Source: Phyllosticta citribraziliensis (taxonomy: Eukaryota). Taken from it: DNA of 64,000 bases. Each line of letters starts with the position of its first letter. Within the stretch, counting starts at the first letter, position 1. The stretch spans positions 1,116,001-1,180,000 of the forward strand of contig NW_027117341.1 in NCBI RefSeq assembly GCF_038025025.1, in the 5' to 3' direction. The position numbers were made by a program, and so were the translations under genes. The notes under the pieces are model-generated. The model was not told the DNA's origin. It did no database searches and worked only from the letters and a program-made list of their open reading frames with translations. Of this stretch, positions 3,847 through 33,138 are shown one piece after another.

Positions 3847-4103
3847 GGCGTCGGTGCGGCCTTGAGCAGAGGCAGCGATGGACTCGACATATTCTTTGGA
3901 AGAGTTGCACGAGAGAGAGAGCGCAGAGCGGTTGCGGGTGGGGAGAGTAGAAAGGAAGAGAGACAGCGGGCGACTACAGGCCGCCATGGAGCGCGGCGCG
4001 CTCGGCATGTGATCCTGGGGCTCCCACATCCATCTCCACACGACACTCTCCACTCTCACTCCACCACGGCTCGTCGTCAAACTTCTCCCACTGCACGTCA
4101 AAC

Positions 4104-10005: not shown

Positions 10006-10140
10006 CCGTGCATGGAGATGTGCGTTCAAGGTTGAGATGTGCAAGGCCTTCTGGGCTCGACCCGCACGGGATTATGAGAAGACTGACTTTGCTACTGAGC
10101 TTGTGGAGCTGAACGTTCGAGAACATGTGGTGCGAAATGG

Positions 10141-10281
10141 TCTACTGGTCATCAAGGAGTAATGTGGCGCTCTGTTTGCTTCAAGGGTCTACTGGTCGTC
10201 AGGGAGTAATGCGGCGCTCTGTTTGCTTCAAGGTTCTGCTGGTCGTCAGGGAGTAATGTGGCGCTCTGTTTGCTTCAAGGG
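10141..10281. repeat. Non-coding tandem repeat, 47 bp x 3
   Basis: Unit tctactggtc(a/g)tca(a/g)ggagtaatg(t/c)ggcgctctgtttgcttcaaggg starts at 10141, 10188 and 10235. Confidence 0.95.
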
Positions 10282-11026
10282 ATATGTGGGTGGCATTGCT
10301 CGGATTGGAAAAGGATTTGCTCAATATGGCGTACGAAAAGGTCGGCTCAAGATACAGAGATGCAGAGATACATCCTACCAATGCAAAGAAATCAACCCAA
10401 TCCAGAGCAACATGCTCTACCGCGCCCCAGTCCACCACTTGTTTGAGAAGAAGAGGGAAATGGAGCGGCGAGCCTTTGGTGATTTCAACACCTCCTCTAC
10501 CACGGAGGAACATGATCTGCCCCTTCACTTCCTTGTGACTGCTGCGCTTGCCCAACTATTCCTACACATGGCCACCGGGCTTCCCTTTTGGGTTGGCCCT
10601 GCGCCGTGAGAAGAGGGAGTATATAATCATGCCATTCTACTTCTCTCTTCTCTTCTGCACCTCTCTTCTTCGCCAGCCTCCACGCCTCTCCTCCGCAACT
10701 CGCTTCTGCAACTCGCCTCTGCGCCTCTTTTCAGCAACTCTCTTCCAAGGCTTGCCGCTCGTCTGCATCTCGCCTTTGCGGCTCGCCTTCGCGGCCCTCT
10801 ACCGCACCTCTTCGCCAAATCCCTTTGGGCATTCCTGCTCCGCGCCTCTTGCGCCGCATCTTTTCCACCAGCACATCTCAGATCATACTTTGTCTTTTCG
10901 AAATCCTTCGTCACGCTTCCTGCGGCATCACCTTCTCTCACCTTCGCGGTCAAGATCATTTGCTCAGCAACCTTCTACCGGAAGCCGGCCATTACAACAC
11001 TCATTTCGCAGCATCCACGCCTCAAG

Positions 11027-11761
11027 ATGAACGGCGCTCCCGCAAACGCTGGGCCTGGTGGCAATAACGCACTCAACGATGACTGCCGCGGCCAAAAGAG
11101 GCGAAGATTCGACGACGATGCTGCGCCTCAAGCTCCCCCCGTTGGCTGTCCCGTTGTCCGAGCCGCCAATGTCGTCGACCAAGCTCTTGCTCCTGAGAAC
11201 CATAACCTTCACATTAACATTACTGGTCCATGTGATTTCGATACTGCAATGGGATCATATGCCATCATGAGTTGGGAGCTTGCATGCGGGCAGAAATCCG
11301 CCGAAGACAAGGAAGAAATTCGACAAGTCCTGAGCAGAAACGTGGGCTTCACATTCAACGCTGGTTTCGTCACGTTGGTATCCTTCTGGATGAACTTTTT
11401 CAAGATGAGAAGCTGGCATCGCATTGCTATCTGGGTACTAATGGAGGAGCCAAATCTTTTCGACATTCCCCGACAGGACTGCCGGCACCGCCTACCGGTC
11501 AATCCACGACCAGCATACTGCAACACCAATCTGCGCAGGTTGATCGATCAATTGAGTCGCGAGAATTACGACCACATGGTGAAGACTGGCAATTTGGACT
11601 CACCTCCCAGGACTGCCCTTTGCGCATCCATTGAAAAGGAAAACGCGCGCAGGAAAATCGAGTGGCACGAGAATTATCGAGTCTGGCGGTCTGGTTGGGT
11701 CTTCTACGACGACGAGCACAGATGCCAGGACTGCGACTTTGAAAATCAAAACCGCGGCTGA
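11027..11761 (+). CDS. Cassette gene A, copy 1 (244 aa, unknown function)
   Basis: Intronless ORF with KRRR basic patch and C-terminal ENARRKIEWHE..W..G..FYDDE..CxxC, shared with the ORF at 25.8-26.3 kb. Confidence 0.75.
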   Translation: MNGAPANAGPGGNNALNDDCRGQKRRRFDDDAAPQAPPVGCPVVRAANVVDQALAPENHNLHINITGPCDFDTAMGSYAIMSWELACGQKSAEDKEEIRQVLSRNVGFTFNAGFVTLVSFWMNFFKMRSWHRIAIWVLMEEPNLFDIPRQDCRHRLPVNPRPAYCNTNLRRLIDQLSRENYDHMVKTGNLDSPPRTALCASIEKENARRKIEWHENYRVWRSGWVFYDDEHRCQDCDFENQNRG

Positions 11762-12754
11762 AAAGGCAGGGTTGGGAGTGGTCAGTACACGAGGATTGCA
11801 TCATTCGGCTTGGATATGCCGACACTGGAGATTTGGACAATAAAAAGGTGATAGGGTCAAGGCTTGAGAAGCATACAGAGATTGAAGACCTCCAAGACGA
11901 AAAAAAGAGAGAGGAAAGGCTCGACTGGTACTTGGCACAGATCATTTGGGCCCAGGGGACTCAACGGGCTACGAATTGAAGACGGGGATTCACGACAGAT
12001 CGAGCAAACTCAAAAGGGTTTACTCGAAGGAATTCTGGCATTTGGATGGCTTGGAAGCTCAACTTGCATGGGCAACGAAAACTTGGGACTTGGTTGGATG
12101 AATGGCGTTTTGGGACATTCAAAATGGGACACATGGGATCAAACGGACGACAAATGCTGAGGGAAAATTGGGACGGAAACCTCGGATTTGAGAGGCTCTG
12201 GTTGGTTGGAACTGGGCAATGGGGTGACAGAGGAGCTTGCTTGCTTGGGCACAACAAAAAAGGTCGGACTTGGGTCAGTGAACGGAGTTTTGGGACTTTC
12301 AAAAATTGGGTGGAGCAGACGAAAGGACATCAGGTAGATAGTCCTCACATTTCAAGAGCAATCAATGATTTCATTTGAGCAACGAGGGTCCTGGCGCTTG
12401 ATGTGACCACGAAGCTGATTTAATTGAGTATTATGAATGCGCAGAGAAACTTTTGATTATGCTACCTGCCTCGAGTCGCGAGTGGAAAGAAAAGAAACCA
12501 TAAGCCACTGTCCCTCGTGCCGTAATGGATACCGAATCCAAGGACCAAATCAATAAACCAATCAATCGCCCCTTTTTGCTTGGCCTTGTAGCGGCCAATG
12601 CATAACCATCTTTTCCAGAGTCGCTGTGTCGTCGACATGAAACCAGAGTGAAAAGAAAATGCCAACCCAGCAGCCGCTTTTGCTCGCCTGTCCAGAGATG
12701 TGTCAACTACCGAATTCTGCTATAGTCGCCGTGCCGCCGAATGAGAAGCAGGAG

Positions 12755-12826
12755 TGGAAATGGAAATGGAAATGGAAATGGAAATGGAAATGGAAATGGA
12801 AATGGAAATGGAAATGGAAATGGAAA
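12755..12826. repeat. Microsatellite (TGGAAA)12
   Basis: Perfect hexamer array. Confidence 0.97.
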
Positions 12827-13207
12827 AGAAGCTTGAGCCAATCATGCAGAGAGAAACCAACCCGTCGTCCGCTCTTTGCTCGCCTGTCCTGCCTGTGAAA
12901 ATGTGCCATGTATCGAGCGCAACTTTTGCCGCTGCCGTCGTGCAGCCAGATTGAAAGCAGGGGGGAAGTATGTATGCAAAGGATTCCGCATCAATCGCGC
13001 AGAGTAAACCAATCCAGTCGTCGTGTATCATGCGCCTTTGCAATGGGGCGTCCCGGCATCAACTTTTGTTGGAGTGCTGTGAAGTCGTTCTGATATGGGA
13101 AGAGAGACGTATGATAGGAAATGACAGCCGTGCATGCAGCAAAAAGGCCGATTGGCCATCGATCTCGTTTGGCTGTCCTGTGTTGTGTATTGTGTCCGAT
13201 TTTTGCT

Positions 13208-14763
13208 CTAGATGCTGTATTGTCGAAGAGCGATGAAAAGGAGAAATAACAAACGCCCACCAGTCGTAGTAAAAGTGTCCAAGGAAATGCCCATTTTATG
13301 CTCGCTTTTTCCGCGACATATCGCCAAGGTCGTCATGGACCTGCCCTGTATGTTCGGACTCGAGATCGGACAGAAAGGAACTCCAGTGGAGTAATGTCGA
13401 ACCAGCTGAAAGAAACTCAGTGCTTGTTCGACCGCCTCTGCAGTGTGTCGGATAGCCTCGAGATCTGCTTGCTTCTGCTTGAGTTGGGAATTCGCCTTTG
13501 TTGCATGCCTAGATGATAGAATGCTGGGCATAGATCAAGTAGCTGTGTTGGTTGCTGAAGCCGCTTTAGTCCGTTGGGATTTCAACTTGAAGCCAGAGTC
13601 AACGAACTTTTCGAGACGCAAACTTTCTGTCTGGAGGTTTCCCAGGATGTGAAATCCCTCATTAATTTGAGCTCAAGTTTGTAGTAAGCAAGAAGCTTGT
13701 TGATGCGCTCTTCAACAAGGTCCGTGTCGTCTGTTAGGTATTGTCGGTCAAGTTTGACTAAACCCCATTGCTCTTCCAGCAACTCACTGCTTTGTGTAGC
13801 CGTAGCGGAATTCCAATAACTGTACTCCTCAACTGTGAGGGCTTTGAGAGGGTCGTAAAGTTATTCCCAGAACGGGTTCAAAACGTCATATTGATGTTTG
13901 CCCAATTTCTGGCACTGTTCCATCAACTTTTGGCTGCAGGCTCTGGCTACGTCCAGTCGCTCCAAAAGTTTCTCTCGATTTGCTGCTAATGTTGGCATGC
14001 AAGTCTGGTTGATCATGTCTTGGACGAGAAAAAGCACGCGTCCAACAGGACTTCGAAGCCCTTGGATAATTTCGAGGCATGGCATGAAGGAAGCGTATTG
14101 CACGCTTTTTTGAAGCATGTCGAAATTTCCATGAGGCTGTGAGGCGAAGGCCAAACGCACCAGGCTCACAATATCGTATTGCATCGGAGGAATATCCTCA
14201 AAGGTCGACAGGGGAGAGCCGTCAAAAACTTTGACCAACCTTTCGGGTTTGGTTTGCAAGAAGTTATTGATCCAGTCCAAAGTGTCTATGGTCGCATTGA
14301 TGAGCGAGAAGAGCCGAAGTCGTAGGACCAAACAGACTTTGTTCCGGTTGAAGATATCGCGTGGACGTTCTGTCAGCACATTTTCGTCTGCTACTCTGCG
14401 CCTCTTCTCTGCAGTCTCGGGCTCCGAATCTGGTGAAAGTGATCTTTTGAGGGGTCTTTGAGTCGGGAAGATGAGTCTGTAAGCGAGTTCAAAATTCTTG
14501 TACGCGCTGTTCCTATCTTCCATGCTGTCGAGCTTGATGTCTTCGAAAGGCTCCACCAGAGATACATGTTTGGCAAGTTGGTCCGAGATTTCGAAAGCTT
14601 CCTTGCTAAGTGTGCCGGCATAGATTCTCCCCATGGCTCCGGACCCAGCATCAGAGCCATGCGACTCGTACCAGAGAGGCAGAACTCTAAAATGCCCAAC
14701 AAAAATCCGTCGAAACTCGAGACAGGTGTAAAATAAACCTGTAGGATGATGGAAGTGAGCCAT
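13208..14763 (-). pseudogene. Cassette gene B, copy 1: 300-aa open N-terminal part (14763-13861) with an interrupted C-terminal continuation
   Basis: After the TAA at 13863-13861 the same frame continues (FWE*LYDPLKAL..QWGLVKLDRQYL). A probable frameshift follows near 13665 and a TGA near 13536, before a coiled-coil-like tail. The N-terminus is similar to the ORF at 27451. Confidence 0.65.
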
Positions 14764-15070
14764 CTGAAAGCCTTGGCTTGAGTGATTGAGCCGTCGACAA
14801 CCTGACGGCGAAAGAGGTGATGTGTGCTTGGTGAGACCAAGAGAGGTGAGATGCTTCGGGAGTTAATGGGCCAGAGGGCGGCTAACCACAGACTCAGACT
14901 CGGTTTTGGATTGGAGGTGAGAGAGCAGAGATAGCACAAGTGAACCGTGTGGAGGGGCGACTTCTGTAGTGTTGACCCGCCGGTCTCGATAGTGTTGTGA
15001 TAGTGTCGACTCTCAGCGACCCAGGGAAGAATGCCGTGGAAGACTGGTGGTGAAGAGGAGGGGTAGCAAA

Positions 15071-15120
15071 GAGAGAGAGAGAAAGAGCGAGAGAGCGAGA
15101 GAGCGAGAGAGCGAGAGAGC
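15071..15120. repeat. GA-rich / (GAGAGAGC)n simple repeat
   Basis: Seen directly. Confidence 0.85.
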
Positions 15121-15300
15121 GTGGAAAGTTGAAGGTTATGTGCCGCACCGGAAGGAAGCTATGTAGCCAGATTTGGAACTAACTCGATCTTCGATTCGTA
15201 GTTGAATAATCGCCCGTGATGCATCTTTTCTGCGTGGCTTGCCTGCGCAACACACGCTTGCACTGGATGCAGGAGACTCAATTCACTTCCACGACCCCAG

Positions 15301-16300
15301 CTAATTGAAGATGATTCCTCCATCCACCAAGAGAGTCTGCCCAGTGACGTAGTCACTATCTGGACCAGCCAGAAAGCTCACAGCTTTGCTCACATCCGTC
15401 GGTACACTCGTGCGTCCAAGCGCAATGTCGGCGGAGTACTTCTTTATGGTATCGCCCTTCTTGGCACCTGTTTCCTCGCCAAGTTTCTCGTCGATGAGGT
15501 CCCACATGCTGGTGCCAACGATGCCCGGCGCATATGCATTCGCGGTGATTTTGTGCTTCGCCATCTCCATGGCAAAGACCTGGGTCAGGCCGCGGACCGC
15601 AAACTTGGTCGCCGAGTAAGGTCCAAGCATCGCAAAGGGCTTGAAAGAGACGATACTGGAGTATCCAGGGTGAGCGCCTGCACATTTGGGGCTCTGATGG
15701 GATGTGCGTACCTGGCAGCACCAATCAATTTGCCTCCGCTACCTTGCGAGATCATCTGCTTTGCAGCGGTAGAATAGCAGTTGAAAGCACCAAAGACGTT
15801 GATCTCGAATATTTTCCGCAGCTCGTCAGGCGTCGTCTGGAGCAGCGGCTTTACCTGGGCGATTCCAGCATTGGCAACCATGGTGTTGAGAGGACCGAGC
15901 TCTTTTACGGATGTTTGGACAATGTTTTCCACTTCCTCCAGTCTTGAGACATCTCCCAAGCATACCGTGGCCTTTCGCCCAAGCTCTTTGATTTCCGATA
16001 CCAATTGCTCTGCCTCGTCTTTGTTGGCAGGAATGTCGTTGACACCCACGTCGTAGCCATCTTGAGCAAGCCGGAGTGCGATGGCTTTGCCGCTGCAAAC
16101 AGTCAAACCTTGCAATATGGTGCTCATTGGAGATCTTACATCCCCCTGGCAGAGCCGGTCACGATCGCTGTCTTACGTTGCTGCTCTGGGACGCCTATGA
16201 CGGAGCGGGTGTATTTGGGACCAGCAACAGGGGCCCTATACGCCGAAGGCAGCGCGTTTGAATATCCGAGCAAGTTGCGAAGTCCCGAACGAGCTGCCAT
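15301..16300 (-). CDS. Short-chain dehydrogenase, acetoin/diacetyl reductase (2,3-butanediol dehydrogenase)-like, with N-terminal extension; 3 exons
   Basis: Motifs TGSARG(I)GKAIALRLA, VANAGIAQV, YSATKFAVRGLTQ, NAYAPGIVGT.MW and DYVTGQTLLVDGG. Introns at about 16093-16139 and 15656-15711. Confidence 0.88.
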
Positions 16301-16728
16301 GATGCGTTTGACGACGGATTTTGAAAGAGAAGGAGAAAGAGAAGATCTGTGGCTGGAACATGGTAACGAGAGACTTCGGAGGTTTTTGATGCAGCGCTTC
16401 AACAGCTAGTCACTCCATCTCGGGGACTACAACACCGGGAATGCGGAGTCGACACGGTATGGGGTAAGGAAGGGTGTCCTGGTGTGGGGACGAGGATATG
16501 CCATTGACGAATCATGGAGGCATCGGACATGCGGAGACATGGCAAAGCAATGCTCAAAAACAAGGCTGAGCTGCAGGAGCAAGGTCACGAAGGGCTGGAG
16601 AAAACGAGGGGAAGTTGAGCGTCAAGGGTTACCCAAAAAAGCAAATCCTACACGCGGGGGAGACTGACTAAGCGGTGTTGACATTTTGCCGCAGACACGT
16701 CCACCACCATCGACCAAGCACACACGTC

Positions 16729-18208
16729 ATGTCGCGCCCCAGTAGCATGATGGCACAACGCAACCTCACCCTGACCGAAGAGCTGGAAAGGCTGGAGCAG
16801 TCCATTACGCTCACGCTTCAAGGTGCGCAGTCTTGTCCTGTTCATGCAGTATTCGGCTAATGACGACACAGAAATCGACCACAACTTTAGTCGCGCCCAT
16901 CGCATCGTTACTGGAAGCATTCTCCCAATCGTCGAAGGATACGCGAAGCATTCTGAAGCTGTATGGGAGGGATCAAAAGTATGGAATCTCGACATCTACT
17001 TGGGCAAAAGGGTCTGACATACGATACAGTTTTGGAAGCAATTCTTCGAAGCCAGCGCAAACGTTTCTCTGTCCGGCTACGAAGAGCCTTCAGGAGGCGA
17101 AGACACCACTATTCAGCATGACGAAATGACGCAAGAATCCTCATACGATGAAAGCCCATCAGTCCGCGACACCACCATCCATTCGAATGCCGATCGTACC
17201 AGCAAATTCGACGACAGCGCAGACCTCGAGGCTGACGACTCGATTCTCTCCTCTCCCTCCCTTACAAAGACTCCCCGCAACCCGCCCACCATGACCGCAG
17301 CCGCATTCGCCGATTACGGCTCTCCATACGAAGCTCTCAGACGGGAACTCCGCGGCGGCGACGGCGATACCAAGCAGGAGGGCAGCGCCAAACAAGCGGA
17401 GAATGACACCGATGGATTCTCTTCTGACGGCGCTGGAGACTTGGACGAAGGCACCGTCATGAATCTTCCAACAACCCCTGGCAGACCTTCGACCTCGGGG
17501 CTTCCGGACATGTCGATGACGCCCCAGTCCTCGCCTTTCGATCAACACACACAAACACACCGGCCAACAGGGAACCAGGACCCGCTGCTGCACCGCATGT
17601 TGGACAGGACATATCGTATCGCAGCGACGCCGCACACGGCCCGCAAGAACCAGCAGTCGCAACAGCAGCAGCGGCGTCCTGACGCGACCCCAGGAACCGC
17701 AAACCGCACGAGACGCCTGACCGCGCTGGACTCGAGCCCTCTCTCATCGCCCGAGGGTGCAGCGCCTCAGTTACGCGCAGAAATGTTTTCTTCCCCCATG
17801 AAGTCTCCTGTGAAGACGCCGCGCACACCCGGCGTCAGCGTGCTGCACCAACAACGACAACAGCACCACACCCCAGGCACCGCCGCCGCAAGCAGCAGCA
17901 AGGGCAAAGGCAAAGCAAGCGAGCAGCCGGTCGAGCGCACCCTCGACTTCACGCGCGACGACCTCGTGACATGGGACTCGGACAGCGAGGATGGCACGCA
18001 GGCCATGAGCCCGCCGAAGACGCTCCAATTCCACGTGCCGCAGAGCCGGCTGCTACAGACGCCGGCGCGCGAGGCCAGTCGGCGCATCGTCGAGGACCTG
18101 CTGCTGACGGCGGGCGGCGGCGATGCGTTGACGGATTCGAATGTTGGCGTGGGCGAGGTCAGCCCGAGCGTGGTGAGGAGACATGAGATGCTTGATGATA
18201 GCTTTTGA
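16729..18208 (+). CDS. ASK1: DASH/Dam1 complex subunit Ask1
   Basis: Spliced N-terminus EELERLEQSITLTLQ/EIDHNFSRAHRIVT..ILP..WEGSK/FWKQFFEASANVSL. Introns at 16823-16871 and 16979-17029. Confidence 0.92.
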
Positions 18209-19001
18209 GCGGCGTGTTGTCCACATTGCGTGCATAGAGGCGGCTGCCTGATTCGTGACGAAGTCGATATACCCGGGGCAGTCCGTCGTTTTCTAGAGAA
18301 CCACATAGACTCACCAACCAAATTTCCTTCCAAACCCGAAAAAGCGCAAGAACGCTGACCCTCCGTGCGCTTACTCGTGCTGTCCGATTTGGCTCGCTTG
18401 CGTGGATGCACGCGGCTGACCTGTCAACAAGTCAGGCCGAGCGAGCGGCGTAGGGCTGGCAGGCTGTCACTTTCACATGTCAAACTCGCCAGCCAGCCAG
18501 CTGGAAGCTCCGTCTGACATCGGAGCATCCCACAGCGCGCGCACGTCAAAAAGCTACACGTACATGGACCTACCGTAGAAAAATTCAGGTACCTGCCGCG
18601 TGACAGCCAGCGCGCCCCGCGTCCCGTTCGCGCGAGCAATCACAAAACACACAGCGTTGGCAAAATGGAACGGACGCAAATTATTTCAAAGCGGCTCTGC
18701 ATGCCGCGCGATTCTGGTAATACTGTACATCTAAAAGTGTAGGTAAATAGATAGATCGATGCGTCGCCCAGCTCTCCCTCTTCTAGATATCTGGCCAAAG
18801 CAAATCAAGTGCCCAGCAGCAGACGACAAACAGATCCAACAACTCGCATCAAACAAGGGTCAACCGGTAGGATGAGGGGGTAACCGAAGGACAGAGGGGA
18901 CGAAAGATCATGAAGCGCAGAAAACGGACTGCGAGGGGTGGCGAGAAATTTGAGGTGTGTGCGGGGGTGGGTGTCTGGTTGCAGGGAAGGGGAGGAAAGA
19001 T

Positions 19002-21122
19002 CTACAACTTCGCCTTGGTTTCGAGAGTAGGCACCATGAGATCTCTGATGTCGCCGGCGGCCTCGTTGAGGTAGAAAGACATGCGGTCCGAGCCGAGGTG
19101 CTTGGAGACGACGTTGAACTGGATGCTGTTTTCGTTGATCATGTAGGCAATACTGCGGCATCACATTAGCTCCGCGTGCTCACCGAGACAGAATTAAAGA
19201 AAGACGCCAAACTTACCCCCACCCATCGTCGAAAACCTGGCTCCAGCCGTAGCCGTTGAAGTACTCGGAGCTCAGCTGGCTGGAGCTGATGAACCAGTGG
19301 CTCGAGTAGCTGAACGTCGGGTCCTTGTAGATGCTGGGCACCTCCTCTCCTTCCTTGAGACACTTCTTGAGGCCGAACAAGTGGCGGTCGACGCCGCGCC
19401 CGTCGCTGGCGTCGGTGATGTATGCGACGTGTGCGTTCAGCGCCTTGCGGAAGAGGTCGCGCGTCTGTTCCGGGCTCGCGCTCGCGTCGGCCATGGCGTT
19501 GCAGAAGGCTACGCTCTCGTCCGACACGGAGCGGCAGGTCTCTGTGCGGCCTTGCTGGAAGCGGCGCGTTGCTGCCGACTCGTACGTGGGTCGGTTCTTG
19601 CCGTAGAACTTGTGGTAGGCGAGTTGGATGATCATTTGCACGTAGGCGTCGGGGCTGCACTTGAACTTCTTGATCAGGCCCTTGCCGTAGCCCTGGTAGG
19701 CCTGTACACGGAGTTCGTGGGCACCAATCTGGCCCTCGAAGTGTTTTTGAGCCGCAGTGATATCATCTTGCAATTCCTTGTTGAGCTTGAAGTTGAGAGG
19801 CGTGGGGTCGGGAATGTTGGAGCGGATGGAGGGGTCGTCAAATGGGAGAGCGTTGGAGAAGATGAGCGCGCTGGCGTGGTCATTCAGGCGGTGCGTAGGA
19901 GTGCCATCCATCATGCTGTGCTCGCCCATGAAGCCAGAGGTGCCATTCTCGTTGATGATGAATTGGAGCGGCTTGTCGAACCAGCGGTTCGCGCCGTCGC
20001 CATGCCAGTAAGCGTGAGCGCGCTCTTCCAGAGTAATTGGGGAAGCATCGTCCAGGCAGACAACAAAGGATGCGGATTCAATGGCCTTGAGAATAGCCTC
20101 GTTGGACGGGTGGGCAGCAATGAGGCGCTCGCGGGCCTCGGTCCAGACATCGCGGTTTTGGCTGGTCAGGAGGCCGACGGGGGGCGCCTTTTCGGCCTTT
20201 TGGTAAATTCTCTTGAACTGCTGCTCCAGTTCTGACGTGTTGAGCTGCCTGCCGTCCAGCTCATGATCCACCTTGAAGAACTGGTTTTTCCTAATGACCA
20301 CAATGTGCTTGTTGCCGGCGAAATCGTATTTCTGGGGGTAGTCGCTCGGCTTGGCGGGAATGCGGCAGCAGTTGAACATGAACTCGTAGCTCGACATGGC
20401 AATAGGAAGCTTCTTCATGTACTCGGGCTCCAGCGTCTTGGTGTCGACCAGCTTCTTGAACTCCAAAGCAGCGGTGGTCAGCGCCGCCGCCCGTTTTGTG
20501 GGGTCGCGGCGCTTGCGGTCATCCCGGTGCGAGTAAAAGTAGCTGACGTATGGAACCACAGGATCTCTGTAGGCCAGATACGCGGCCTCATTCCACCATT
20601 CGTAGATCCAGTTCTTGACGTTGGGGTCTTCTCTCCGCGCAATCAAGCGTTTCTGGAGAGTCTCGCCAGCACCGCCGGGCTGAACAAAGTCCTCGACAGC
20701 CTTCTTTGTGCTCTCAAACTCCTGAGTGTTCAGCAGCGGGTGGACGGACTTGAGGTATCGTTTCGCAGTCTCATCGAGGGTCGGTACAGGAAGGCGCGGC
20801 AGCGATTCTTCGAAGCGTAGCATAGGGCCCTTGGTCTTGTCCTCCTTGTAGCCTGTATTGCGGTTAGGACCCGAGTATTGGGGCTCGCAAGGGGAGAGAG
20901 CGAGGCGCACGTACCGGCCGGCAGAGTCGACTGTGTTCTAGCGGACGCCATGGTGATCAACTGCTCGGCGGTGGTCAGAATTCTGCGTCGCACAAAGTAG
21001 ATCTGCAGATGCGGCCCGCGAAACAAACATACCGTGGGGGAGCGGGTGACGGGCTTGGACAGGGCTTGAGCGCGGAGAAGCGAGGTGGAGTTGGGGCGAG
21101 CCCGGCTCAGAGCATTAAACAT
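19002..21122 (-). CDS. CAT2: Carnitine O-acetyltransferase, mitochondrial/peroxisomal (Cat2/AcuJ type); 4 exons
   Basis: Motifs LPRLPVPTL, NRWFDKPLQ, GEHSMMDG and TYESAATRRF..GRTE. Arg/Ser-rich N-terminal presequence and C-terminal AKL (PTS1). Introns at 20961-21032, 20853-20914 and about 19153-19216. Confidence 0.95.
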
Positions 21123-21194
21123 ATCTCTGATGGCAGGCGGATTGAGCAGACGGTCGACGAGCGGTGTAAATTAGTATGGCCGTTCTGAAAAGAC

Positions 21195-21520
21195 CCTCGG
21201 TCAGCGGGAAGAAGGACGGCGGCCATGCCGGTGGGAGCAAGCAAGCTGCACCATGACGCCCTGGGGATGCCGAGGTCCAGCTGCCCCGCCCGATTGGCTG
21301 GCCCAACGCGCCCGCATGCGCACCCCAGACTGTTTGCTTACCTTCACTTCACTTGGGTCTCTCTGAATGCGGTCCTCTGCGTCTATCGCATCACTCACGC
21401 GGCGACGTCTCCTTTTTCAACTTGCTCCTCCACCAACACGCGCCACGATCTCGAAGCGCCATCCGGCTATCCCCCAGCTTTCGGCTCCCCACACATTCGT
21501 CAAAGCCCCACGGGCCGAGG
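21195..21520. promoter_or_regulatory. Three CCTCGG/CCGAGG (FarA/FarB-type) elements upstream of the carnitine acetyltransferase gene
   Basis: CCTCGG at 21195; CCGAGG at 21270 and 21515. Confidence 0.6.
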
Positions 21521-21604
21521 GAAGCCCCACCTCGACCGCGGTCCGAAAATGGCAATGGGCAACTCGAGTACTGCATTTCGTATGTACAATTTAGTGGTGT
21601 AGAA

Positions 21605-22570
21605 TCATCCGCCGACCTGCCGCCTCATCCACTCTTCTGGTGCCGTCGCTTTGCGCCCCAAAATCCATTCAAGCACCCCCGGATTTCCCAGAAGACCGCG
21701 TCTGTTGTAGAATAGGATCATCCTCTCCGGTTCATCTCGAGTTCGCGCGTCGACCTCGGTGGTGGCATACAACCGCTTGCACAACATATCGACCGACTCT
21801 TGAAAGGGGATGCGGGACACCTCGACGTCCTTTCCCAGGACTTTGGCTGCCATGGCGACTAGCGCCGAGTTGGGCATGGGCATAGTTGAGCACGCCGCAT
21901 ACTGGGCCATGTAGTGCTTCTCCCTCTCCTCGATGACTTTTGAAACTGCTTCTGCGAGGTCATCGAGCGCTGTGTAGGAAAACGAAACATTGGTATCCCA
22001 GAGTGCCGGAAAAACTGGCTTTTCTTGCTGCGCCAAATACTTGATGGGAAAGTTGTCCAAGAAAGTACTGGGCTGAAGAATTGTAAAGTTCAATCCAGAC
22101 TCCATCAGATGTTCCTCGACGTGGTTCTTGCAGTCGTGATTCATCAACTTGCGCAATTGAGGACTAAGCACCGACGAGTAAATAAAGTGCTTGAATGTGC
22201 CCCGCTTGGCCTCCTCCACAGCGGCATCAACCATGAAGCAGCCCATCTCTTTCTCGCGCGGATGGAAGGAGGGCCCCACGTGGAAAACAGTTGCGACGCC
22301 GCACATGATGCGGCGCACATGGTCGACGTTGTCCAGACTCGCCCGAACAACCTCCGCTTCGGGGTATCGCGTCTTGAGACGTTCTTCGGAGGCCTGGCTG
22401 TTGACATGTAGGCGAAGGTGTCTCCATTTTCCCTGCAAGAGCGGCAAGAGAGATGAACATTGTTTTCCGCTGGCACAAACCAGTAGGAGCACGTCGTTGT
22501 CGTGGTCGACAGACATTTGGGGACGCAAGGATGAGATGAAAAGCTTGAGGTGACTTGCGCTTTTGGACAT
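21605..22570 (-). CDS. NmrA-like NAD(P)-binding protein
   Basis: Motifs LLVCASGKQC, FHVGPSFHPRE, FIYSSVL..KLMNHDCK..VEEHLMESGLNFTILQP. The true start may be the Met at 22516. Confidence 0.85.
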   Translation of the reverse strand: MSKSASHLKLFISSLRPQMSVDHDNDVLLLVCASGKQCSSLLPLLQGKWRHLRLHVNSQASEERLKTRYPEAEVVRASLDNVDHVRRIMCGVATVFHVGPSFHPREKEMGCFMVDAAVEEAKRGTFKHFIYSSVLSPQLRKLMNHDCKNHVEEHLMESGLNFTILQPSTFLDNFPIKYLAQQEKPVFPALWDTNVSFSYTALDDLAEAVSKVIEEREKHYMAQYAACSTMPMPNSALVAMAAKVLGKDVEVSRIPFQESVDMLCKRLYATTEVDARTRDEPERMILFYNRRGLLGNPGVLEWILGRKATAPEEWMRRQVGG

Positions 22571-23029
22571 TGGCTTTCAGAACGCAGACGGAACTAGAAG
22601 GAGAAGACAGAGCCGACTGACGGCTCATAGGTCATCTCTTTGAAGACATCTCGGATCTGGTTAGCAGTTGGGGAACTTGAAGATCGTTGACTTCGGGATT
22701 CTTTTTCGTCGCGACGGAGGAAATCGCCGATGTGAGGTGATCACAGCAAAGACTTGAAAAGTCACGCTCCACCATGAACAAGATCCGAAGTCTGAGAGCG
22801 ACAGCACGAAGGAGAAATAAATTCTTGTGTCGTCGTCTAGTGATGTAGCGGACGGACGGGCTGACGGCATGGGGACCGGGAAGATAGCTCCGAGATTTTT
22901 GCGCGAGCCCGCTAGCCCGACGCCAGTTTGCCCAAGCTTTCCGGCTCGCTGCTCTCAACACCATACTTCCTCTCACCGTTACTTCATCCATTGCATCTCC
23001 GCTTTGTCCCTCCTACCGCATCCTTCATC

Positions 23030-24326
23030 ATGTTCGCTGCTCGTCAGGTCTTCGGCGCTGCCCAGAGGAGGGCTTTCTCTGTCTCCGCCAGGCAGGTAAG
23101 CGCTTCCTTCACCGCGCCGCAAAAGCCGCAACCGCTCTGTTGCGCCCCGTACCGTGCTAATTGTCACGCCGCAGAACTCCAAGGTCGCTGTCCTCGGCGC
23201 TGCTGGTGGCATTGGCCAGCCTCTTTCCCTGCTCCTTAAGCTTAACCCCCGCGTGAGCTCTCTCGCTCTCTACGACATCCGAGGCGGCCCTGGTACGACT
23301 CCCGAATCCTGCGTGAAGATGTACCTCTGACACGTATCTTAGGTGTTGCTGCCGATGTTTCCCACGTCAACACCAAGAGCATCGTATGCCGGCCCCTTTC
23401 TTTATAATTGGGTTGGAGACTCACAGGTAAACAGGTCAAGGGCTACGACCCGACTCCCTCGGGCCTCAAGGAGTGCTTGGAGGGTGCTGAGATTGTTCTC
23501 ATCCCCGCCGGTGTTCCCCGCAAGCCTGGCATGACCCGTGATGGTAAGCATTCTGTATCACTGTATGTTGCTTCACGGCTGACCATTGGAAGACCTCTTC
23601 AACACCAACGCCTCGATCGTCCGCGACCTCGCCAAGGCCACCGCTGAGGCTGCCCCCAAGGCCAACGTCTTGATCATCTCGAACCCTGTATGGATCTACC
23701 GTTCTTGCTCCTGGCATACTTCTAACACTACATAGGTCAACTCTACCGTCCCCATTACGGCTGAGGTCTTCAAGAGCAAGGGTGTCTACGACCCCAAGCG
23801 CCTTTTCGGTGTCACCACCCTCGACGTCGTCCGCGCCTCCCGCTTCATCTCCGAGATCAAGGGCAGCGACCCCGCCAACGAGAACATTACCGTCGTCGGT
23901 GGTCACTCTGGTGCCACCATTGTCCCCCTGCTGTCGCAGTCCGGCCACAAGCTCCAGGGCGAGCAGCTCGATGCCTACATCAAGCGCGTCCAGTTCGGTG
24001 GTGACGAGGTCGTTCAGGCCAAGGGCGGTGCTGGCTCCGCCACCCTCTCCATGGCCATGGCCGGCGCCCGCTTCGCCGAGTCTCTCCTCAAGGCCGCTCA
24101 GGGTGAGAAGGGTGTCATTGAGCCCACCTTCGTCGAGAGCCCCCTGTACAAGGACCAGGGCTGCGACTTCTTCGCCTCCAAGGTCGAGCTCGGCCCCAAC
24201 GGTGTTGAGAAGATCCACCCCGTCGGCCAGATCACCGAGTTCGAGCAGAAGCTTCTCGACGTCTGCCTCCAGGACCTCTCCAAGAACATCCAGAAGGGTG
24301 TCAAGTTCGTCAAGGAGAACCCTTAA
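23030..24326 (+). CDS. MDH1: Malate dehydrogenase, mitochondrial; 6 exons
   Basis: Presequence [17 protein letters not shown], then [35 protein letters not shown] and [10 protein letters not shown]; five short GT-AG introns. Confidence 0.97.
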
Positions 24327-25745
24327 ATCAACGGTGGGCGAGGATGACGAGTAATGTGCATGGATGGAAGTGGATTTGGTAGCGACAATGATTAGCCCAG
24401 AGAAGGGAGATTCTGCGTATATAAAGATCTCTTTCCCTAAGACCTGTGCACGTAGATTTTGCGGGTTTTCCTCATGTTTGGTCAGGACTTTTTAGGTACT
24501 TGAGGTCAAACGCGGACTCTTGCTAATCAAGCTTTTTTTCTACCAGGAAACCAGTCACGGCCGTCTATGAATGGTATACCATCTCTCTTTCATCAGGGTT
24601 GACTCGTTTTCTTGCTCATGCCAAATGTGTCCTTTCGCCCGACGCCAGCGGCCCAGGAGGTGATGGGTGGCCTTGGGACTGACGCGGTAATGATCATTGC
24701 CATTCTCTGGAGCGGCGCAGCAACATAGAGGTTGACTTGTACCGAAATACTGACGCCAGTAATGCTGCTGCGGCGAAGCGACCACCAAATACCACGACAG
24801 AATCTAAAAGGCATTGCGAAGGCCATGCGGCGCGGGTGGCCAAAGAATGTTCAACTGCTTGAAGCCAATGGAGAAATTGGAGACCGGGAGCTAAAACGGA
24901 CGGTGAAGTCGGCTTTGAAAGGCTTGCCACTCCTGCCGCTGGCCTGGAAGACGTTGACGGAGTTGAACGAGAAGTCCGTCCAGATTTCCACGCGCCATGG
25001 TTCCCGCTAGCATGCGGACATCGAATTGTTGCATCGCTTCATCAAGTTAAAGCAGCAGTACAACTTGTCCTTGCTAGCCACGTATCTATTCTGCTGACAG
25101 TGCTCTCGAGCTTCATTCGTACAGACACGATCGTATAGCCCGTCCCCAAAGGTAGTCGTTCTTCCCTTCCATTTACAACAGAAGTGTCATCATTGATGGT
25201 TCGTGTTGGGGCAGGTAAGCTAGTGGGATGAATATCCATCGTAGTCCTCCACTCCAAAAACACCGACGACAACGATGACAACGATGACGAATTTCCTATT
25301 CGGGTTAGACACCAGAGGAGTAGGTACAAAATCTTGCTTCCACCGCCGTCCTCATCCTCCATCAACCCGGCCGACGACGACGAAGACGACGACGACGACG
25401 AAGAAGAATAGGAGGAGGACGCCGGAACGCCGGAACGCCAGGACGACGACGGACCTTGCTGCCACCAGACTCCCAATCGATCACGTTTGAGGCAATCACA
25501 TTTCCGGCAATCCTTTTCTACCCTTCCAACGGTCTTCTTGTGCAAACCCCTCTTTCCGACAGTCTCCCTCTCGACCATCGAGCCTCTGTGAATTCCCTTT
25601 TTGGACGACTGGTTCAATTGGTCTACAATCGAACATCAACACCTCCAAGCGTCCTGAGCTCGAGACCGAGAACAAATTACGAAACGGCGACGTCGACAAG
25701 ACGAAACTTCGGCTCATTCCTCCTCGTGCTTTCACCAACAGATGA

Positions 25746-26291
25746 CTTCTTACAATCCCATCTGCTCCTCGTGACTACTGTCTCAAGACATGGCAACGCA
25801 ATTCTGGACAGATTTCCGCGGACCAAAAGGAGATTGTCCGGCAGGTGTTCAGCGAGAAGACGGAATTTGTTCTCGAGATCGAGACAATCGAGAAAATGTC
25901 TGAATTCAGGGAGACCCACAAGCAGACGACGTTCTATGCTGCCGCTCGCTGGGTCTTCGGACTCGAACAGACCCGTTCAATCGCTTCTCGTCGCAAGCGC
26001 AAACCCTTTCCGCACCCGCCAGAGAACCTTCGGACTCCAGAGGGCCACATTGTTCTCTCCGAGCTCCTGAAGAGGTACGACGACCACGTTCACAAGTCCC
26101 GGCGCGAGACTTGCCGCTTGGACTGTAAGGACTTCGCTTCAAACTATCGCCTGATGGCCAAAGTCGGACGGGAAAACGCACGCCGCAAGATTGAGTGGCA
26201 CGAGGAGCATGGCTACTGGAGGGATGGTTTCATTTACTACGATGACGAGTTTGATTGCCCCGAGTGTCAAGCAGACCAAGACAACCAGTGA
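25746..26291 (+). pseudogene. Cassette gene A, copy 2 (5' end disrupted or not located)
   Basis: Frame reads RDYCLKTWQRNSGQISADQKEIVRQVFSEKTEF...ENARRKIEWHEEHGYWRDGFIYYDDEFDCPEC, matching copy 1. A TGA at 25743 lies upstream and there is no ATG before the homologous block. Confidence 0.6.
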
Positions 26292-27450
26292 AAAATGGTT
26301 GAAGAGCAGCCACGGTACTAGCGGGCGTCTGCCTGAATGAACCGATTCGATCAGGACAATTTCAACAGCTGAAAAGTGCATCGAGCAAGGTTGACCTCGG
26401 AGGACTGGAGTTTCAGTGGTTTCCGAAAACCACGATTGATGCTACGGGTCATTGGACAGGGACTGCGGATTTGAAGCTTGGACGACCACGATGGAGTGGA
26501 GTTTCAGGGGCAAAACTTGAGCTTTGAGCGTTTGTCGGCGGTTGGGTGGTCAAAATCGGGGACAGGGCCATCACCACAAAAGTTGTTCTTGCAGAGTCAT
26601 TGAGTCTGGAAGAGTACGATTCTTGATGGGGGCTTGCTGGAGGAAAACGATTCTGTCAAAATGAGCAAAGGGCGTCTCAAACGGGACTGGGGAATGGTCA
26701 AGGCCATTGATTCCACAAAACTGTGGGGAAACAGTCAGGGGCCTTACCTAATGAGTGGTTCAAAGTACGCGAGCAGTTTGTTTTTGAGGGAATAGCATTC
26801 GGTGACTGGTCGTTTCGATCTGATTCGATCGAATAACTCTGCCACTTCTTCCAGTCTGTGTACGGTGCAGTCGATTGTATCAATCGCGAGATTGACGCAG
26901 TCATGGAAAACGCCCACTGCGTACTGTTTCTCTCAAACGGCACTGCAGGACGGGCGACCTGACCTACCTGCCAAGGACATCGAATTTCCTTAATCATACG
27001 GACTGGTCAAATAGAAGCACTCGAATTCCAGTGGATTGGTGCAATCATGGCTTCAAGTCGATGGGAATCGGTGATTGCACGGATTGAGCCAATCTGCTCT
27101 CCTTAATTCTCCTTAACCTCCCCATTAGACTTCAGGTCATCGCTCTCCCCACCACGGAGAAGCTTTCTCTGTCCAAATTCTCGTGTTCTGGCCCCTTTTA
27201 GAGAAACCGTTTGCAACAATGACCCTATGGAGATTGCTACAATCTCCTAGTTTGAATCAAACGCGCATGACAGTCAATCCGCAAAGAACTCATCACTTAA
27301 GGCCTTCTGTCCTCCATCAACGAGTGCAGTCCGATCAGAGGAGTTGTGCTCATCTTTTATCAGATCACCATCGCGACCCTATTCTCATACACCCCTGGAA
27401 TTCGCAGCAGTCGGAATAGAAACCCGAATCTCCACTCCTCCGTGACATCA

Positions 27451-28467
27451 ATGTCCTCCGCAAATATGGAACCGGTGTACAAGGACCAGGAGACCGGTCT
27501 TACGTACAGCAAGAGCCCCAAGTACAGAATCCTCGTCGGAATGGATTCAGAAGGACCTTCAGTGATCTGGTCGAGCATGTTGCCCATGTTCTTCGCATCA
27601 CGAGACGGCAACGAGCAAATCGAAGTTTCCGCCCTGAGCAAGGCCTCGGTTCGACTTGTCCCGCCTTTCAACGGCATCAAACTGGAAACGGAAGAAGACA
27701 GGAAGAAAGCCCTGGCACTGTTCCGGCGGATCTGGATTCGCATTTTTCCTGACGTCAAGAATTATCACTTCGATCAATACAGCAACTGTGCTGTGCGTAT
27801 TTCGGAGAAAGAACGAGTGTCGGTTGAGGAGTTCATCAATCGTGTCAGACAGGGCAGGCAGAAGCTGGCGCCTCACCACGAGTGTCTCAGCTTCGACACG
27901 GAGGAGGACGCGCAAGATTCGATGCTCGTGATGTTTGTGGAGTTTTCATCTGTTGTCGTCGAGAGGAACAAGACCCTGCTATACTCAACTCCTTCGACTA
28001 CTCAGAATCTCAGCTCGAGCAAAGCCAGTGGAAAAATTTGATGGCACGATGGGAATTTCTTCCTATCAGAGTCGTGACTTTGTGAGTGGCTTCAAATTGA
28101 TCAACACCCAGCGAAATTGCTCACTATAACCAAATAGGGCCTTTGAGCACGGCGAAAATAGGATGGATGAGACGTGTGGAACACGACCTGAGAGCCGGGC
28201 GTCACTGCAGTCAATAGAATTTAGGCTAGATGAAATCAGGGGGATCTTGGTCATGGTCGCAGAGATGTAATTTTGGAGATTTTCCTCTCAAAACGCTTGG
28301 ATTCACGTGTGCCGGTTGTTGAAAGAAAATGCAGGATACGAGGAGTGAAAAGGCGTCAGAACTGTTCTAGAACATGTAGAGAAGTGGCTGGGAGGGATGG
28401 AAAGAATCCCACAAATAAACCAAACTGGCCAGAGATTTGTTGGCAAACGCTGAGCACGTTGGTTTGA
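27451..28467 (+). pseudogene. Cassette gene B, copy 2: 196-aa ORF (27451-28041) plus frameshifted, stop-interrupted tail
   Basis: ETGLTYSKSPKYRILVG and VRLVPPFNGIKLETEEDRKKALALFRRIWIRIFP match copy 1. A shifted frame gives KPVEKFDGT..RDFVSGFKL and IRGILVMVAEM, which resemble the later part of copy 1. Confidence 0.6.
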
Positions 28468-31400
28468 CGGATTGACACGCGTCTTCCGATCCTCTCCTGC
28501 TGTTAGGCATGCCCAGCAAGAGCCATCAGAGTAGCCCTCTCGCGCGAAAAAGGGAGTGATCCAAGACTCGTCTCGGAGCTGCGGTCGTTTCTCTGCGGCG
28601 AGCCAGTGGTTACTTGTTTGGTTGTTAAAACCGAGTTAGCGCCAACACGGCATCTCAAAGCCTTTCGCGACAACCACGCGATGCCGTACTTCAACACATT
28701 CATCCCATCTTCAAAAAGCTGTGCGTGGGCTAGATGTCGAAAGGCGTCATCAACAGCACTCCGTCGACCCCGTTCCAGCTCGAACCAAGCGACACACCGA
28801 CCAGGGACCCACCCTCCTAGCCACATGAAGCTAAAACAAAACGTACAACAGCCGGGATTCGCTGCTGGTCACCCACGCAACTACTAATCGGCCGCAAGGT
28901 AGCTTATCTATGGAAGAGCGGACGGGGTTCCGAGTTTTCTACCTGCTATGGTCGTACGTGGAATTACCGTCTGCAAATAAGACTTATTATGGCACACTTG
29001 CGTCGCATCCAGCACCAATTTCCCCTCCCCTCTCCGCGCCTCCTCTTGACAGTCATTCGATGGTCCTACGCCCCGCAACGCCTGCCTTCAGCTCAAGACA
29101 GAACTAGCCACCATCTACAGCCGCTCCTGCACACGCTCACTCAGAGCACCAAACCTGCTTGTCCCTCCAAGCGCACAGAAGACTCGGTTCGCGCCGTCCG
29201 CCCCTCGGCTTTCCCCAAACAAGCAACCCCGCGCTCTCCGCGCCCCGGCACCGCGCGGCGTGTCCGCAACAGTCGCATCCAGACCCGAACGAGGCAGCCT
29301 CGCGGCGCGCTCGTTTTCCCCGTGGGGACAGCGCGCGCTTGTGGGGTGGGTACTGTACCTGGATAGGCGGGTGTGTGGGTTGGTGGGTGCTTTGGCGCGC
29401 GTGCTGGGTGCGCCCTCGAGACGAGGGCCTCGTTTCGGCGTTGCGGTACGCACGCCTCTTGTGTGCAGTACAGGACATGCGGGTTGCGTTCTAAGGACTG
29501 TGGCAAAATTGCGGTCGACGCGTTGTTTGACGTTCTTGTGCTGTGATGTGTGCGTTGACAGAGGCGAGAGAACTCTTTTCCGCTGCCGGTGCTGCTACTG
29601 CTGCTACCGTTGAAGCTCTCGCGTAAAGTCAGTCTGTGGTGGAATAACGACGTTCCTGTCCATATAGGCGGCAAAAAGTTGATGCTGGATAGACAGCGGT
29701 GGCATATTGTCTGTATACGATCTGAGTTTGCTATGCCCACGCTCTCGATTTCCTTTGCTCGTTCGAGACGTGTAAGCAAGTAGCAGTGCAAAAAGGAGCG
29801 GCCGCAATCTTGATTGGCTGGCTTTGTTTGTGACGAATGGTTTGTTTCTCTCGTTCTGTGATTGAAAAATGATGTATGTGGTTCAAATGTGATGCTACCT
29901 TTTGTCAAGGGTCAAAACGCGTGAAAGGGCAAATGGTGGTAGATTGACATCCGGCGGCGGTAAATGGCAGCGCTTGCCATGAAAGAATATGTTGTAGATC
30001 GTACTGCCGACCTAATATGAACTACGCAATAAACGCTAGCGTTGACGCCTTGTTCTACGTTTTCCTCCCGTATCTATAAAAGTTGATCTAGAAGCCCCAC
30101 AGGAATAACAGAATCACGAATCCCACGTCATCAACTTGACAGCTACACCCACCGCACGCCATTCATTAGCATCACTCGTCAACCAATCAAATCCGCCGAC
30201 GGAGCCCTCGCGGCAAGCAGGACGAGGAGACTGCAAGAGATCGTGAACTCACCAAAATAGGCCACCCCAGCCAGACTAAGCAGCATGCAGCCAATCGTCA
30301 CCATGACCTGCAGGCCCGGCCCCGTGGCCAGCCGCGTGTCCACCATGTTCTTTTCCTTCTCGTTGTTGCTGTTTTCGGCAGCAAAGCCGCGTGCGTCTGC
30401 AGATGCGAAGGCGGATGTTGCAGTAGTGGCAAAATGTACGTACTTCTTTGAGTCAGGTACGGGGATAAGTGAACCAGTGGCCGCGGGAGGGGGTTGAGGC
30501 TATGCTGCTGATGCTGCTGCTGCAATCCGTCTTGCACCGGCAGTATGTACGCACGGCACGTGTGGTTCACGCACGCTCTTGAAGATTGCAGGAGAGGAGA
30601 ACCACTCTTCGATGAGATAGGTGGACAGGCCGGAGCGTTACACGCCGTAGACGGTGCGAACCGAACGCGTCAAGGCCGTACAGGCCGTACAGCAGGTACA
30701 GCAGGTAGCTGGGCCTTCGGAAGTAGACGGAGATGCGCCAGTTCCCGTCCTTTGTCGTGTGAGGACGTGGGTCAGACAGGGCATCAATCGGGTCAGGGCG
30801 CGTACGAGTAGTTCCGCGAGTCGTTTGCTGCCTTGTCCACCTGCCAGCGCGTTGTCCGCTTCCGTGCGGCAGAAAGGCAGAAAGACAGATGAGTGGATGC
30901 GGCGGCGCGTGAATGTTCGGACGGAGCCGGAGCGTTTCGTCGAACGGGTGGATGATATGGAGAAGTGAGCGGGCACGGGAAAACCTGACGCCTAAGAGGA
31001 CGACGGACAGACCTGCGCATTAGCGCTGCACGATTTGGGTCAAGATGGCGGACGTGGCGCCTGGGGAAGGCTGGGGTATTGGTAGTTGATGCGTAGAAAG
31101 AGAGCAGGCATGTCGGGCGGGTGTGTGCAGGGCTCGCCGTTTGGTTTGCTTCTCCAGCCAGAAAGATCAAGTGCCGTGGCAGGGTTGGGATGGGAAACCA
31201 AGCCGGTGGCCGACACGTGCTCTTCATCCCATCAACCACGTTTGGTTATGCTGTAAAGTAGTGCTGCATGGGTCTAAGGGGACGAGGCGAACAAAGCTTT
31301 GGCTCTTGTCTCCCCGCACTGTGGCATCACGAGGTCCTCGACGCAGAAGGGTCTCGTATAGCGCGCGGCATAACGACGTGGATTGGGAAAAAAAGAACGC

Positions 31401-32611: not shown

Positions 32612-33100
32612 TCAGTAACCCTTGAGGTCAAAGTTCTTGCGCTCGTGCTCCAGAATAGCCTGGACTTTTGATGCCGATGCGCTTTGCGGGTCGAAATGAT
32701 AGCCCAGCCACTCCTTGGCGAGCCTCCTAGCCAGTTCCAGACCCACCACCCTCTCGCCCATGCAGAGGACTTGGGCGTTGTTGCTGAGAACGGCCCTTTC
32801 AACGCTAAAACTGTCGTGCGCTGTTACAGCCCTGATTCCGGGCACCTTGTTGGCACTAATCGCGACTCCAAGGCCTGTGCCGCAAATAAGGAGGGCACGG
32901 TCAGCCTTGCCCTCGCTGACGAGCTTTGCCGCATCGACGGCGACGTGGGGATAGGCAGTCTTGTCTGTGTTTCCGTTGACGCCAACGTCGAACACTTGTT
33001 CTACCCTGGGATCCTTTTCGAGGTCGGCCTTGATGGTGTTTTTGTAGTTGATGCCGGCATCATCGCAGCCGACGACGATACGGAGCTTTTGAGTGGCCAT
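32612..33100 (-). CDS. rpiB: Ribose-5-phosphate isomerase B (RpiB/LacAB family)
   Basis: Motifs [30 protein letters not shown] and [15 protein letters not shown]. Confidence 0.95.
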
Positions 33101-33138
33101 GGCGCAGGGGTTGCGATGATATCACCGGAGTGGAGCGG

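Follow-up and report, generated by a model that had tools for sequence, protein, structure and literature searches.

Why should the same two genes lie next to each other twice, about 14.5 kb apart, among the conserved genes of a filamentous ascomycete? The question is raised by a stretch of 64,000 nucleotides (nt) of the Phyllosticta citribraziliensis genome (RefSeq assembly GCF_038025025.1, contig NW_027117341.1, positions 1,116,001 to 1,180,000 of the forward strand; hereafter the window), in which open reading frames (ORFs) of two protein families, here called A and B, occur as a pair in two separate intervals. Island 1 (A1 and B1) lies between the genes for a CSC1-like channel and a short-chain dehydrogenase (SDR), and island 2 (A2 and B2) between those for malate dehydrogenase (MDH) and rpiB. 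An earlier note on this DNA had read the pair as a co-inherited unit, either a toxin/antidote, drive or allorecognition pair, or the relic of an unclassified mobile or viral element. According to our analysis the feature is real and most likely the outcome of a block duplication, long ago, of two orphan genes specific to the genus, and the double adjacency is best explained without a mobile cassette.

Two pairs of paralogs in two islands

In island 1, A1 (11027-11761, forward strand) is an intact ORF of 244 amino acids (aa), for which an identical protein exists in public protein sets, and B1 (13861-14763, reverse strand) is an intact ORF of 300 aa. Island 2 contains B2 (27451-28041, forward strand), an intact ORF of 196 aa, and A2 (25746-26291, forward strand), a stop-to-stop open frame of 181 codons. 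The two genes converge in island 1 and are co-oriented in island 2; both this arrangement and the positions of the ORFs had been given correctly by the earlier note. A1 carries the N-terminal motif W..GQ...KE..RQ and the C-terminal motif ENARRxIEWH..W..G...Y.DE..CxxC. The stretch directly upstream of it (10621-11026, forward strand) looks, from its composition, like a putative promoter and 5′ leader, since TATATAA at 10621-10627 is followed by a CT-rich leader of about 400 nt that runs to the ATG. Three tandem 47-nt repeats lie further upstream of A1, at 10136-10281.

Comparison of the encoded proteins indicated that each gene has a relative in the other island. A1 and A2 share 59 of 183 residues (32%; BLASTP E=7e-23), and their Smith-Waterman score was 214; when the partner sequence was shuffled 500 times, the mean score was 31.7 and none of the shuffles reached the real one (z=36). 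For B1 and B2, 32 of 94 residues were identical (34%; E=6e-8) and the score was 89 against a shuffle mean of 32.3, again with 0 of 500 shuffles reaching it (z=10). The kinship that had been proposed within each family thus withstood the shuffling check in both cases, without restriction for A; for B, it is limited to the N-terminal ~100 aa, that is, to the first third of B1, and the predicted helical C-terminal 200 aa of B1 have no counterpart in B2. As judged by these alignments, A1/A2 and B1/B2 are true paralogs, and the N-terminal ~100 residues common to the B proteins may form a separate small domain. When all four proteins were compared with the window by tblastn, exactly two copies of each were found. 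We also considered whether A and B might be distant relatives of each other and rejected it: all four A-versus-B pair scores were at chance level, and a profile-profile comparison found nothing.

At the DNA level, the only repeat between the islands is a block of 79 nt located within A1 (11638-11716, forward strand) and, at 73% identity, within A2 (26171-26249, forward strand), which encodes the ENARRKIEWHE...YDDE motif, the best-conserved part of A. Apart from A and B, comparison of island 1 with island 2 by tblastx and blastn revealed nothing in common. Among the 169 aligned codons of A1 and A2, 58 specify the same residue, and in 31 of these 58 the codon itself is different. Codon counts for B1 and B2 were set aside, since they take in the C-terminal part of the alignment, which is not homologous. 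So many diverged codons at residues that were kept point to an old duplication, and the conservation of the protein in spite of codon divergence indicates that both copies were long held as proteins, which rules out chance ORFs. Repeat-induced point mutation (RIP) was examined as a cause of the divergence and discarded, with TpA/ApT of 0.32-0.46, (CpA+TpG)/(ApC+GpT) of 1.08-1.50 and no part of the sequence RIP-like.

The arrangement of the four genes bears on how they arose. In both A1-B1 and A2-B2, the paralog of each gene again neighbours the paralog of the other, and the order A-B is kept in the two islands, with B inverted in one of them and, in agreement with an old event, no similarity in the intergenic sequence. 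If a single block was duplicated, the double adjacency amounts to one event of descent and is, by itself, silent on any functional coupling of A and B. A search downstream of B2 and upstream of A1 for remnants of the SDR, carnitine acyltransferase, NmrA and MDH genes was negative, which gives no support to a larger tandem duplication with later loss of redundant copies but does not speak against one either.

A2 had been described as a gene, a view that is upheld for its open frame but not for its start. The A1-like sequence begins at 25761, an in-frame TGA occupies 25743-25745, no in-frame ATG precedes the conserved N-terminal part, and the earliest one is found at 25896. Another ATG (25742-25744, forward strand) overlaps the TGA one base out of the A2 register, and its own frame stops after 10 codons. 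From the reading frame, A2 would thus either yield an N-terminally truncated product or be an inactivated copy.

The families are confined to Phyllosticta in the databases searched

A word-based search of 5.8 billion clusters recovered only A1 itself (one significant candidate out of 103). A profile built from A1 and A2, run with HMMER against 1,835,955,588 representatives, gave four proteins at E<=1e-3: A1; P0006 (258 aa), the public spliced model of A2 in P. citribraziliensis; P0007 (257 aa), whose cluster includes proteins of P. citricarpa, P. paracitricarpa and P. citriasiana; and P0008 (352 aa), clustered with proteins of P. capitalensis. All named members of the P0007 and P0008 clusters belong to Phyllosticta, and no match from a virus or any other taxon appeared among the 1.84 billion representatives. 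The profile check that the earlier note had proposed therefore returned Phyllosticta only. According to PMC9073689, P. capitalensis stands furthest apart from the other species, and the presence of family A in it implies that the family spans the sampled genus. Among JGI metagenome contigs there were 324 matches to the family A pattern, none of which was confirmed as a relative.

Only two A proteins are annotated for P. citribraziliensis in the protein sets. Identity between any two of the four A lineages is 27-32%, and a maximum-likelihood tree of seven rows, from which P0006 and P0012 were left out as alternative models of genes already present, was an unresolved star with long branches in which no orthology could be assigned. 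The three proteins of the citricarpa clade are almost identical to each other. In an alignment of eight rows, 24 columns were invariant; 15 of them fall in ENARRxIEWH..W..G...Y.DE..CxxC, which provides a usable signature for finding further members, and others in an N-terminal W...KE..Q block. P0007 contains, at residues ~160-225 and directly before the C-terminal motif, an internal tandem duplication of ~27 residues (KLRAAVS...ERENAR twice).

For family B, a word-based search with B1 returned B1 itself and its shorter public model, P0003. With a profile of B1 and B2, the same kind of search recovered B1, P0003, B2 and P0005, a protein of 194 aa from P. citrichinensis that is the ortholog of B2. 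P0005 and B2, both encoded by ORFs of ~195 aa, have 74% identical and 85% similar residues; P. citrichinaensis (the P. citrichinensis of this text) is the closest relative of P. citribraziliensis according to PMC9073689. Family B was therefore seen in these two species only, by a word-based search that is weaker than the one applied to A, and none of its 407 pattern matches among JGI metagenome contigs was confirmed as a relative. Taken as orphan families, A has no homolog outside this narrow clade by exhaustive profile search and B none by word-based search, and neither matches a curated domain or a solved structure. We found no literature on these genes under Phyllosticta genomes, lineage-specific duplication, the accession numbers or the locus-tag stems, a statement that does not extend to the supplementary orthogroup tables of PMC9073689.

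The earlier note had recognised neither family, and domain searches agree. None of the four window proteins and none of the four relatives of A and B passed the Pfam cut-offs, sequence profile searches of the PDB gave nothing with E<0.28 for A or B, and the ESM Atlas, whose models of A1 and B1 have a pLDDT of 0.38, offered no usable match for either. AlphaFold2 with the small family alignments modelled A1 as all helices at a pLDDT (predicted local distance difference test) of 46.5 and B1 at 38.2. A Foldseek comparison of the A1 model with the PDB produced 0 matches at E<=0.001, a result that, with so poor a model, says nothing either way; of the profile and structure checks that had been suggested, the structural one was thus uninformative. 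Hydropathy revealed no signal peptide and no membrane segment in the A and B proteins. Nuclear location was considered from basic patches resembling nuclear localisation signals and set aside, as the patches are not conserved across members. A and B are best explained, from these sequence properties, as unrelated families of small, soluble, presumably intracellular proteins. The A1 model hints that A may be all-helical. Because the His of EWH and the CxxC are invariant, with invariant acidic residues nearby, at the end of a predicted helix, the C-terminal motif of A may, with low confidence, be a small metal- or protein-binding knuckle.

Unspliced RNA contigs disagree with two public gene models

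Runs X1 and X2 (organism A) matched the window without differences, and in genes near the islands, among them those for SDR, carnitine acyltransferase and MDH, their contigs have GT..AG or CT..AC joints. Such splice joints mean that these runs contain RNA. Two contigs of X1, both unspliced and with 0 differences, bear on the islands. The first (2317 nt, 12835-15061) spans the whole of B1 and ends at simple repeats, and the second (1937 nt, 25119-27031) spans A2 together with the stretch that P0006 treats as an intron. The repeats at which the RNA contigs stop are a (TGGAAA)n microsatellite (12743-12838), located in the A1-B1 spacer, and an AG-rich simple repeat (15062-15125) between B1 and the SDR gene. 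These contig data, in which some DNA carry-over is possible, carry no strand, level or transcript ends; cover was absent or next to absent over the A1 bins (10628-11955) in X1 and X2 and a trace over B2 in X1, but missing cover in contigs allows no inference about expression or co-expression. Run X5 covered conserved genes only. The proposal that A and B are intronless genes in intron-rich surroundings is borne out, for B1 and A2, by the unspliced contigs over them, as opposed to the joints in the SDR, carnitine acyltransferase and MDH genes.

The public gene models of A and B disagree among themselves and with the RNA contigs. P0003, the public P. citribraziliensis model of B1 (173 aa), has Met44 as its first residue and treats part of the interior as an intron. 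Since the 12835-15061 contig has no joint and the residues ahead of Met44 are conserved in B2, the ORF of 300 aa fits better than P0003. P0006 is assembled from an ORF further upstream (from 24762), a short exon and A2, which it enters at ~25811, thereby skipping the invariant Trp motif of the family, and the lack of splicing in the 25119-27031 contig indicates that this model is probably wrong. Two public gene models are corrected in this way, as the RNA contigs lend no support to the splicing in the B1 and A2 models.

Both islands are present in a relative

Run X4, from a relative designated organism B, covered 30 of 30 bins and lacked all the splice joints listed, as DNA would. One X4 contig (11377-12059, ~85% identical) includes the 3′ half of A1 and the sequence beyond, another (12836-15060, ~94% identical) includes B1, and a third of 3002 nt (25834-26584 plus 26655-28022, ~91% identical) includes A2 and B2. 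Organism B therefore carries both islands, and the presence of A2 and B2 on a single contig implies that they are linked there too. Relative to organism B, 10 of 13 listed differences in A2 change a residue, in one case an Ile that is invariant elsewhere in the family, whereas of the 7 listed in B2, 3 change a residue and 4 are synonymous; these 20 belong to a total of 2045 differences and are a small, possibly unrepresentative subset. Two X4 contigs with unequal numbers of differences lie over 15876-16505, and X4 seems to hold more than one related genome. In contigs of X4, position 12251 is joined to position 12100, further back, through 22 foreign letters, which hints at a minor rearrangement between A1 and B1 in organism B.

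Surroundings of the islands

As a piece of a filamentous ascomycete genome, the window is ordinary and densely packed with genes. Pfam was applied to 106 of the 201 stop-to-stop ORFs of at least 110 codons, selected by eye, the other 95 being mostly overlapping or antisense frames. It identified TatD (3951-5237), the CSC1-like channel (5929-8090), SDR (15304-16172, reverse strand), a carnitine acyltransferase (19216-20937, reverse strand), an NmrA-like gene (21608-22576, reverse strand), MDH (23736-24323) and rpiB (32615-33121, reverse strand), and more housekeeping genes lie beyond this set. The location of both islands between conserved genes, as described earlier, is thereby established for the CSC1-like, SDR, MDH and rpiB genes. 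Besides the four A and B genes, these intervals contain a transcribed ORF (9400-10005) and a 5S rRNA gene.

The first of these (9400-10005, forward strand) encodes a Gln/Pro-rich protein of 201 aa that belongs to no Pfam family. It starts within six tandem 27-nt repeats (9272-9487), and its C-terminal end is rich in Cys and His, with a C2H2 match that is sub-threshold only (E=0.42); it may be a further lineage-specific gene adjoining island 1. The 5S rRNA gene (28840-28959, reverse strand; Rfam RF00001, 85.8 bits, full length) is found ~800 nt downstream of B2, and contig depth over its bin was very high in all of X1, X2 and X4, in line with a dispersed multi-copy gene. A search of the sequence for tRNA genes found none. 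Between the SDR and carnitine acyltransferase genes, a transcribed ORF of 360 aa (17126-18208, forward strand), rich in Ser, Pro and Gln and without a Pfam family, is preceded by two GT..AG introns (16820-16870 and 16978-17030). An open frame of 1041 codons (58516-61638, forward strand) matches no Pfam family at E<=1e-5; it represents a large uncharacterised gene, with internal repeats at ~59809-60480 detected by tblastx.

Origin of the double adjacency

We consider it probable that A and B are genus-restricted orphan families whose genes were ancestral neighbours, were duplicated once as a block and had B inverted in one of the copies. According to this reading, members of two unrelated families, so far seen in Phyllosticta only, would have been adjacent in an ancestor, and one old local segmental duplication would have copied the A-B block. 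B would have been inverted later in one of the two copies. Both A copies would then have been under protein-level selection for long, with the core motifs kept and the synonymous sites diverging, and island 2 would now be less constrained, an impression that comes from the missing in-frame start of A2 and from the predominance of residue-changing differences among those listed for it. The claim of a co-inherited unit is accordingly retained in part: both paralog pairs are adjacent and A2-B2 linkage extends to organism B, but one duplication testifies to descent and not to functional coupling.

Several observations weigh against this account. The copy count covers the 64-kb window. Beyond the islands, the five intervening genes have left no relics, and the intergenic sequences have no similarity, so the manner of the duplication is inferred. 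The roughly equal distances among the A lineages and their star-like tree could also come from an older family of several copies with differential loss, and the maintenance of A-B adjacency over deep divergence, together with a B2 that is 74% identical between species placed as closest sisters in PMC9073689, fits a linked conflict pair as well. The restriction of B comes from a word-based search that missed B2 when B1 was the lone query, and distant relatives of B could exist anywhere. As for the function of A, the knuckle proposal rests on three invariant ligand-type residues and on a model with the low score given above.

The alternative that survives best, although we regard it as doubtful, is that the cassette is partly or wholly non-functional, consisting of decaying remnants, above all in island 2, or of meaningless transcribed ORFs produced by gene callers. 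It would account for an A2 without an in-frame ATG before its conserved part and with a nearby ATG one base out of register, for the residue-changing majority of its listed differences, including the one at the invariant Ile, for the very low confidence of the A1 and B1 structure models and for public gene models that conflict with each other and with the RNA contigs. It is difficult to reconcile with A1, B1 and B2 as intact ORFs of 244, 300 and 196 codons, with protein conservation over diverged codons, which signals long selection on both A copies, with the nearly equal length and 85% similarity of B2 and its ortholog, and with the synonymous nature of 4 of the 7 listed differences in B2. 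A partial loss of function, mainly in island 2, is compatible with the block duplication that we favour.

It is unlikely that A and B make up a functionally coupled conflict module (a toxin/antidote, spore killer or allorecognition system) that needs linkage and for that reason was kept twice with both genes. Such a module would be in keeping with adjacency maintained in both copies in spite of strongly diverged synonymous sites, with the A2-B2 linkage in organism B, with families limited to one genus in which each species has different, deeply diverged annotated members, with the modest identity of B2 between the closest sister species, and with the residue changes in A2, drawn from the same subset of differences. 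However, searches of Pfam and of PDB sequence profiles with the A/B proteins and their relatives found no HET, NLR, HeLo, nuclease, pore-former or toxin domain, nor any other known domain, and no fold was obtainable; the absence of an in-frame start in A2 means that island 2 of this strain is probably no intact pair; one block duplication accounts for the double adjacency without selection for linkage; and the A protein is almost invariant within the citricarpa clade, unlike an arms-race gene. The suggestion of a toxin/antidote, drive or allorecognition pair consequently received no positive support. We hold for still less likely the more specific version in which a Phyllosticta-private two-component conflict system, formed by two undescribed families, was preserved by selection on linkage rather than by mere descent, keeping A next to B.

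The earlier note had also suggested the relic of an unclassified mobile or viral element; that an element of this kind entered two sites among housekeeping genes and left the islands behind is very improbable, for while the intron-free A and B genes stand in an intron-rich region, the G+C content of the islands is 0.48-0.54 as compared with 0.54-0.59 in neighbouring genes and a 5S rRNA gene lies close to island 2, a repeat search of 9000-30000 found no terminal inverted repeats, long terminal repeats, flanking direct repeats or target-site duplications bracketing either island, Pfam found no transposase, integrase, reverse transcriptase, helicase, capsid or viral domain in the A/B proteins and the scanned window ORFs, the window holds two copies only, with just 79 nt of detectable DNA similarity, both islands are shared with organism B, and family A has no match in viral or other taxa.

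With the block duplication as the preferred reading, the locus offers a clean, well-bounded case of two genus-restricted protein families duplicated together. Phyllosticta comprises citrus pathogens as well as endophytes such as P. citribraziliensis, and a conflict or recognition module of two genes private to this genus, if true, would be a new family of such systems; the interest of the locus is modest unless a functional coupling of A and B holds.

Comparison with known systems

Filamentous ascomycetes have linked two-gene allorecognition loci, such as het-c/pin-c, sec-9/plp-1 and cwr-1/cwr-2, that involve HET, NLR, patatin, SNARE and polysaccharide monooxygenase domains and whose versions are alleles at one locus under balancing selection. 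The A-B islands resemble them in that neighbouring genes of unrelated families are passed on together and exist in deeply diverged versions. They differ in that A and B contain none of those domains and in that one genome carries both A-B versions, as paralogs at separate loci.

In the killer meiotic drivers Spok and wtf, one gene provides both activities; these genes vary in copy number and are often found within larger mobile regions. Like them, A and B are lineage-restricted, fast-diverging and predicted to be intracellular proteins of no obvious family, but they are two separate genes, with two fixed copies in the window and no mobile context.

The closest resemblance is to fungal orphan families expanded by local segmental duplication. 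A has no homolog outside one genus by exhaustive search, neither family has a relative in Pfam, the PDB or the Atlas, the ORFs are short and free of introns, structure prediction has low confidence, and two neighbouring genes appear to have been duplicated together. Unlike young de novo genes, in which it would be unusual, A possesses a sharply conserved C-terminal motif. What sets A and B apart from other fungal orphan families is that their duplicates are very old, with ~30% identity, and yet the two-gene arrangement has been kept in both islands.

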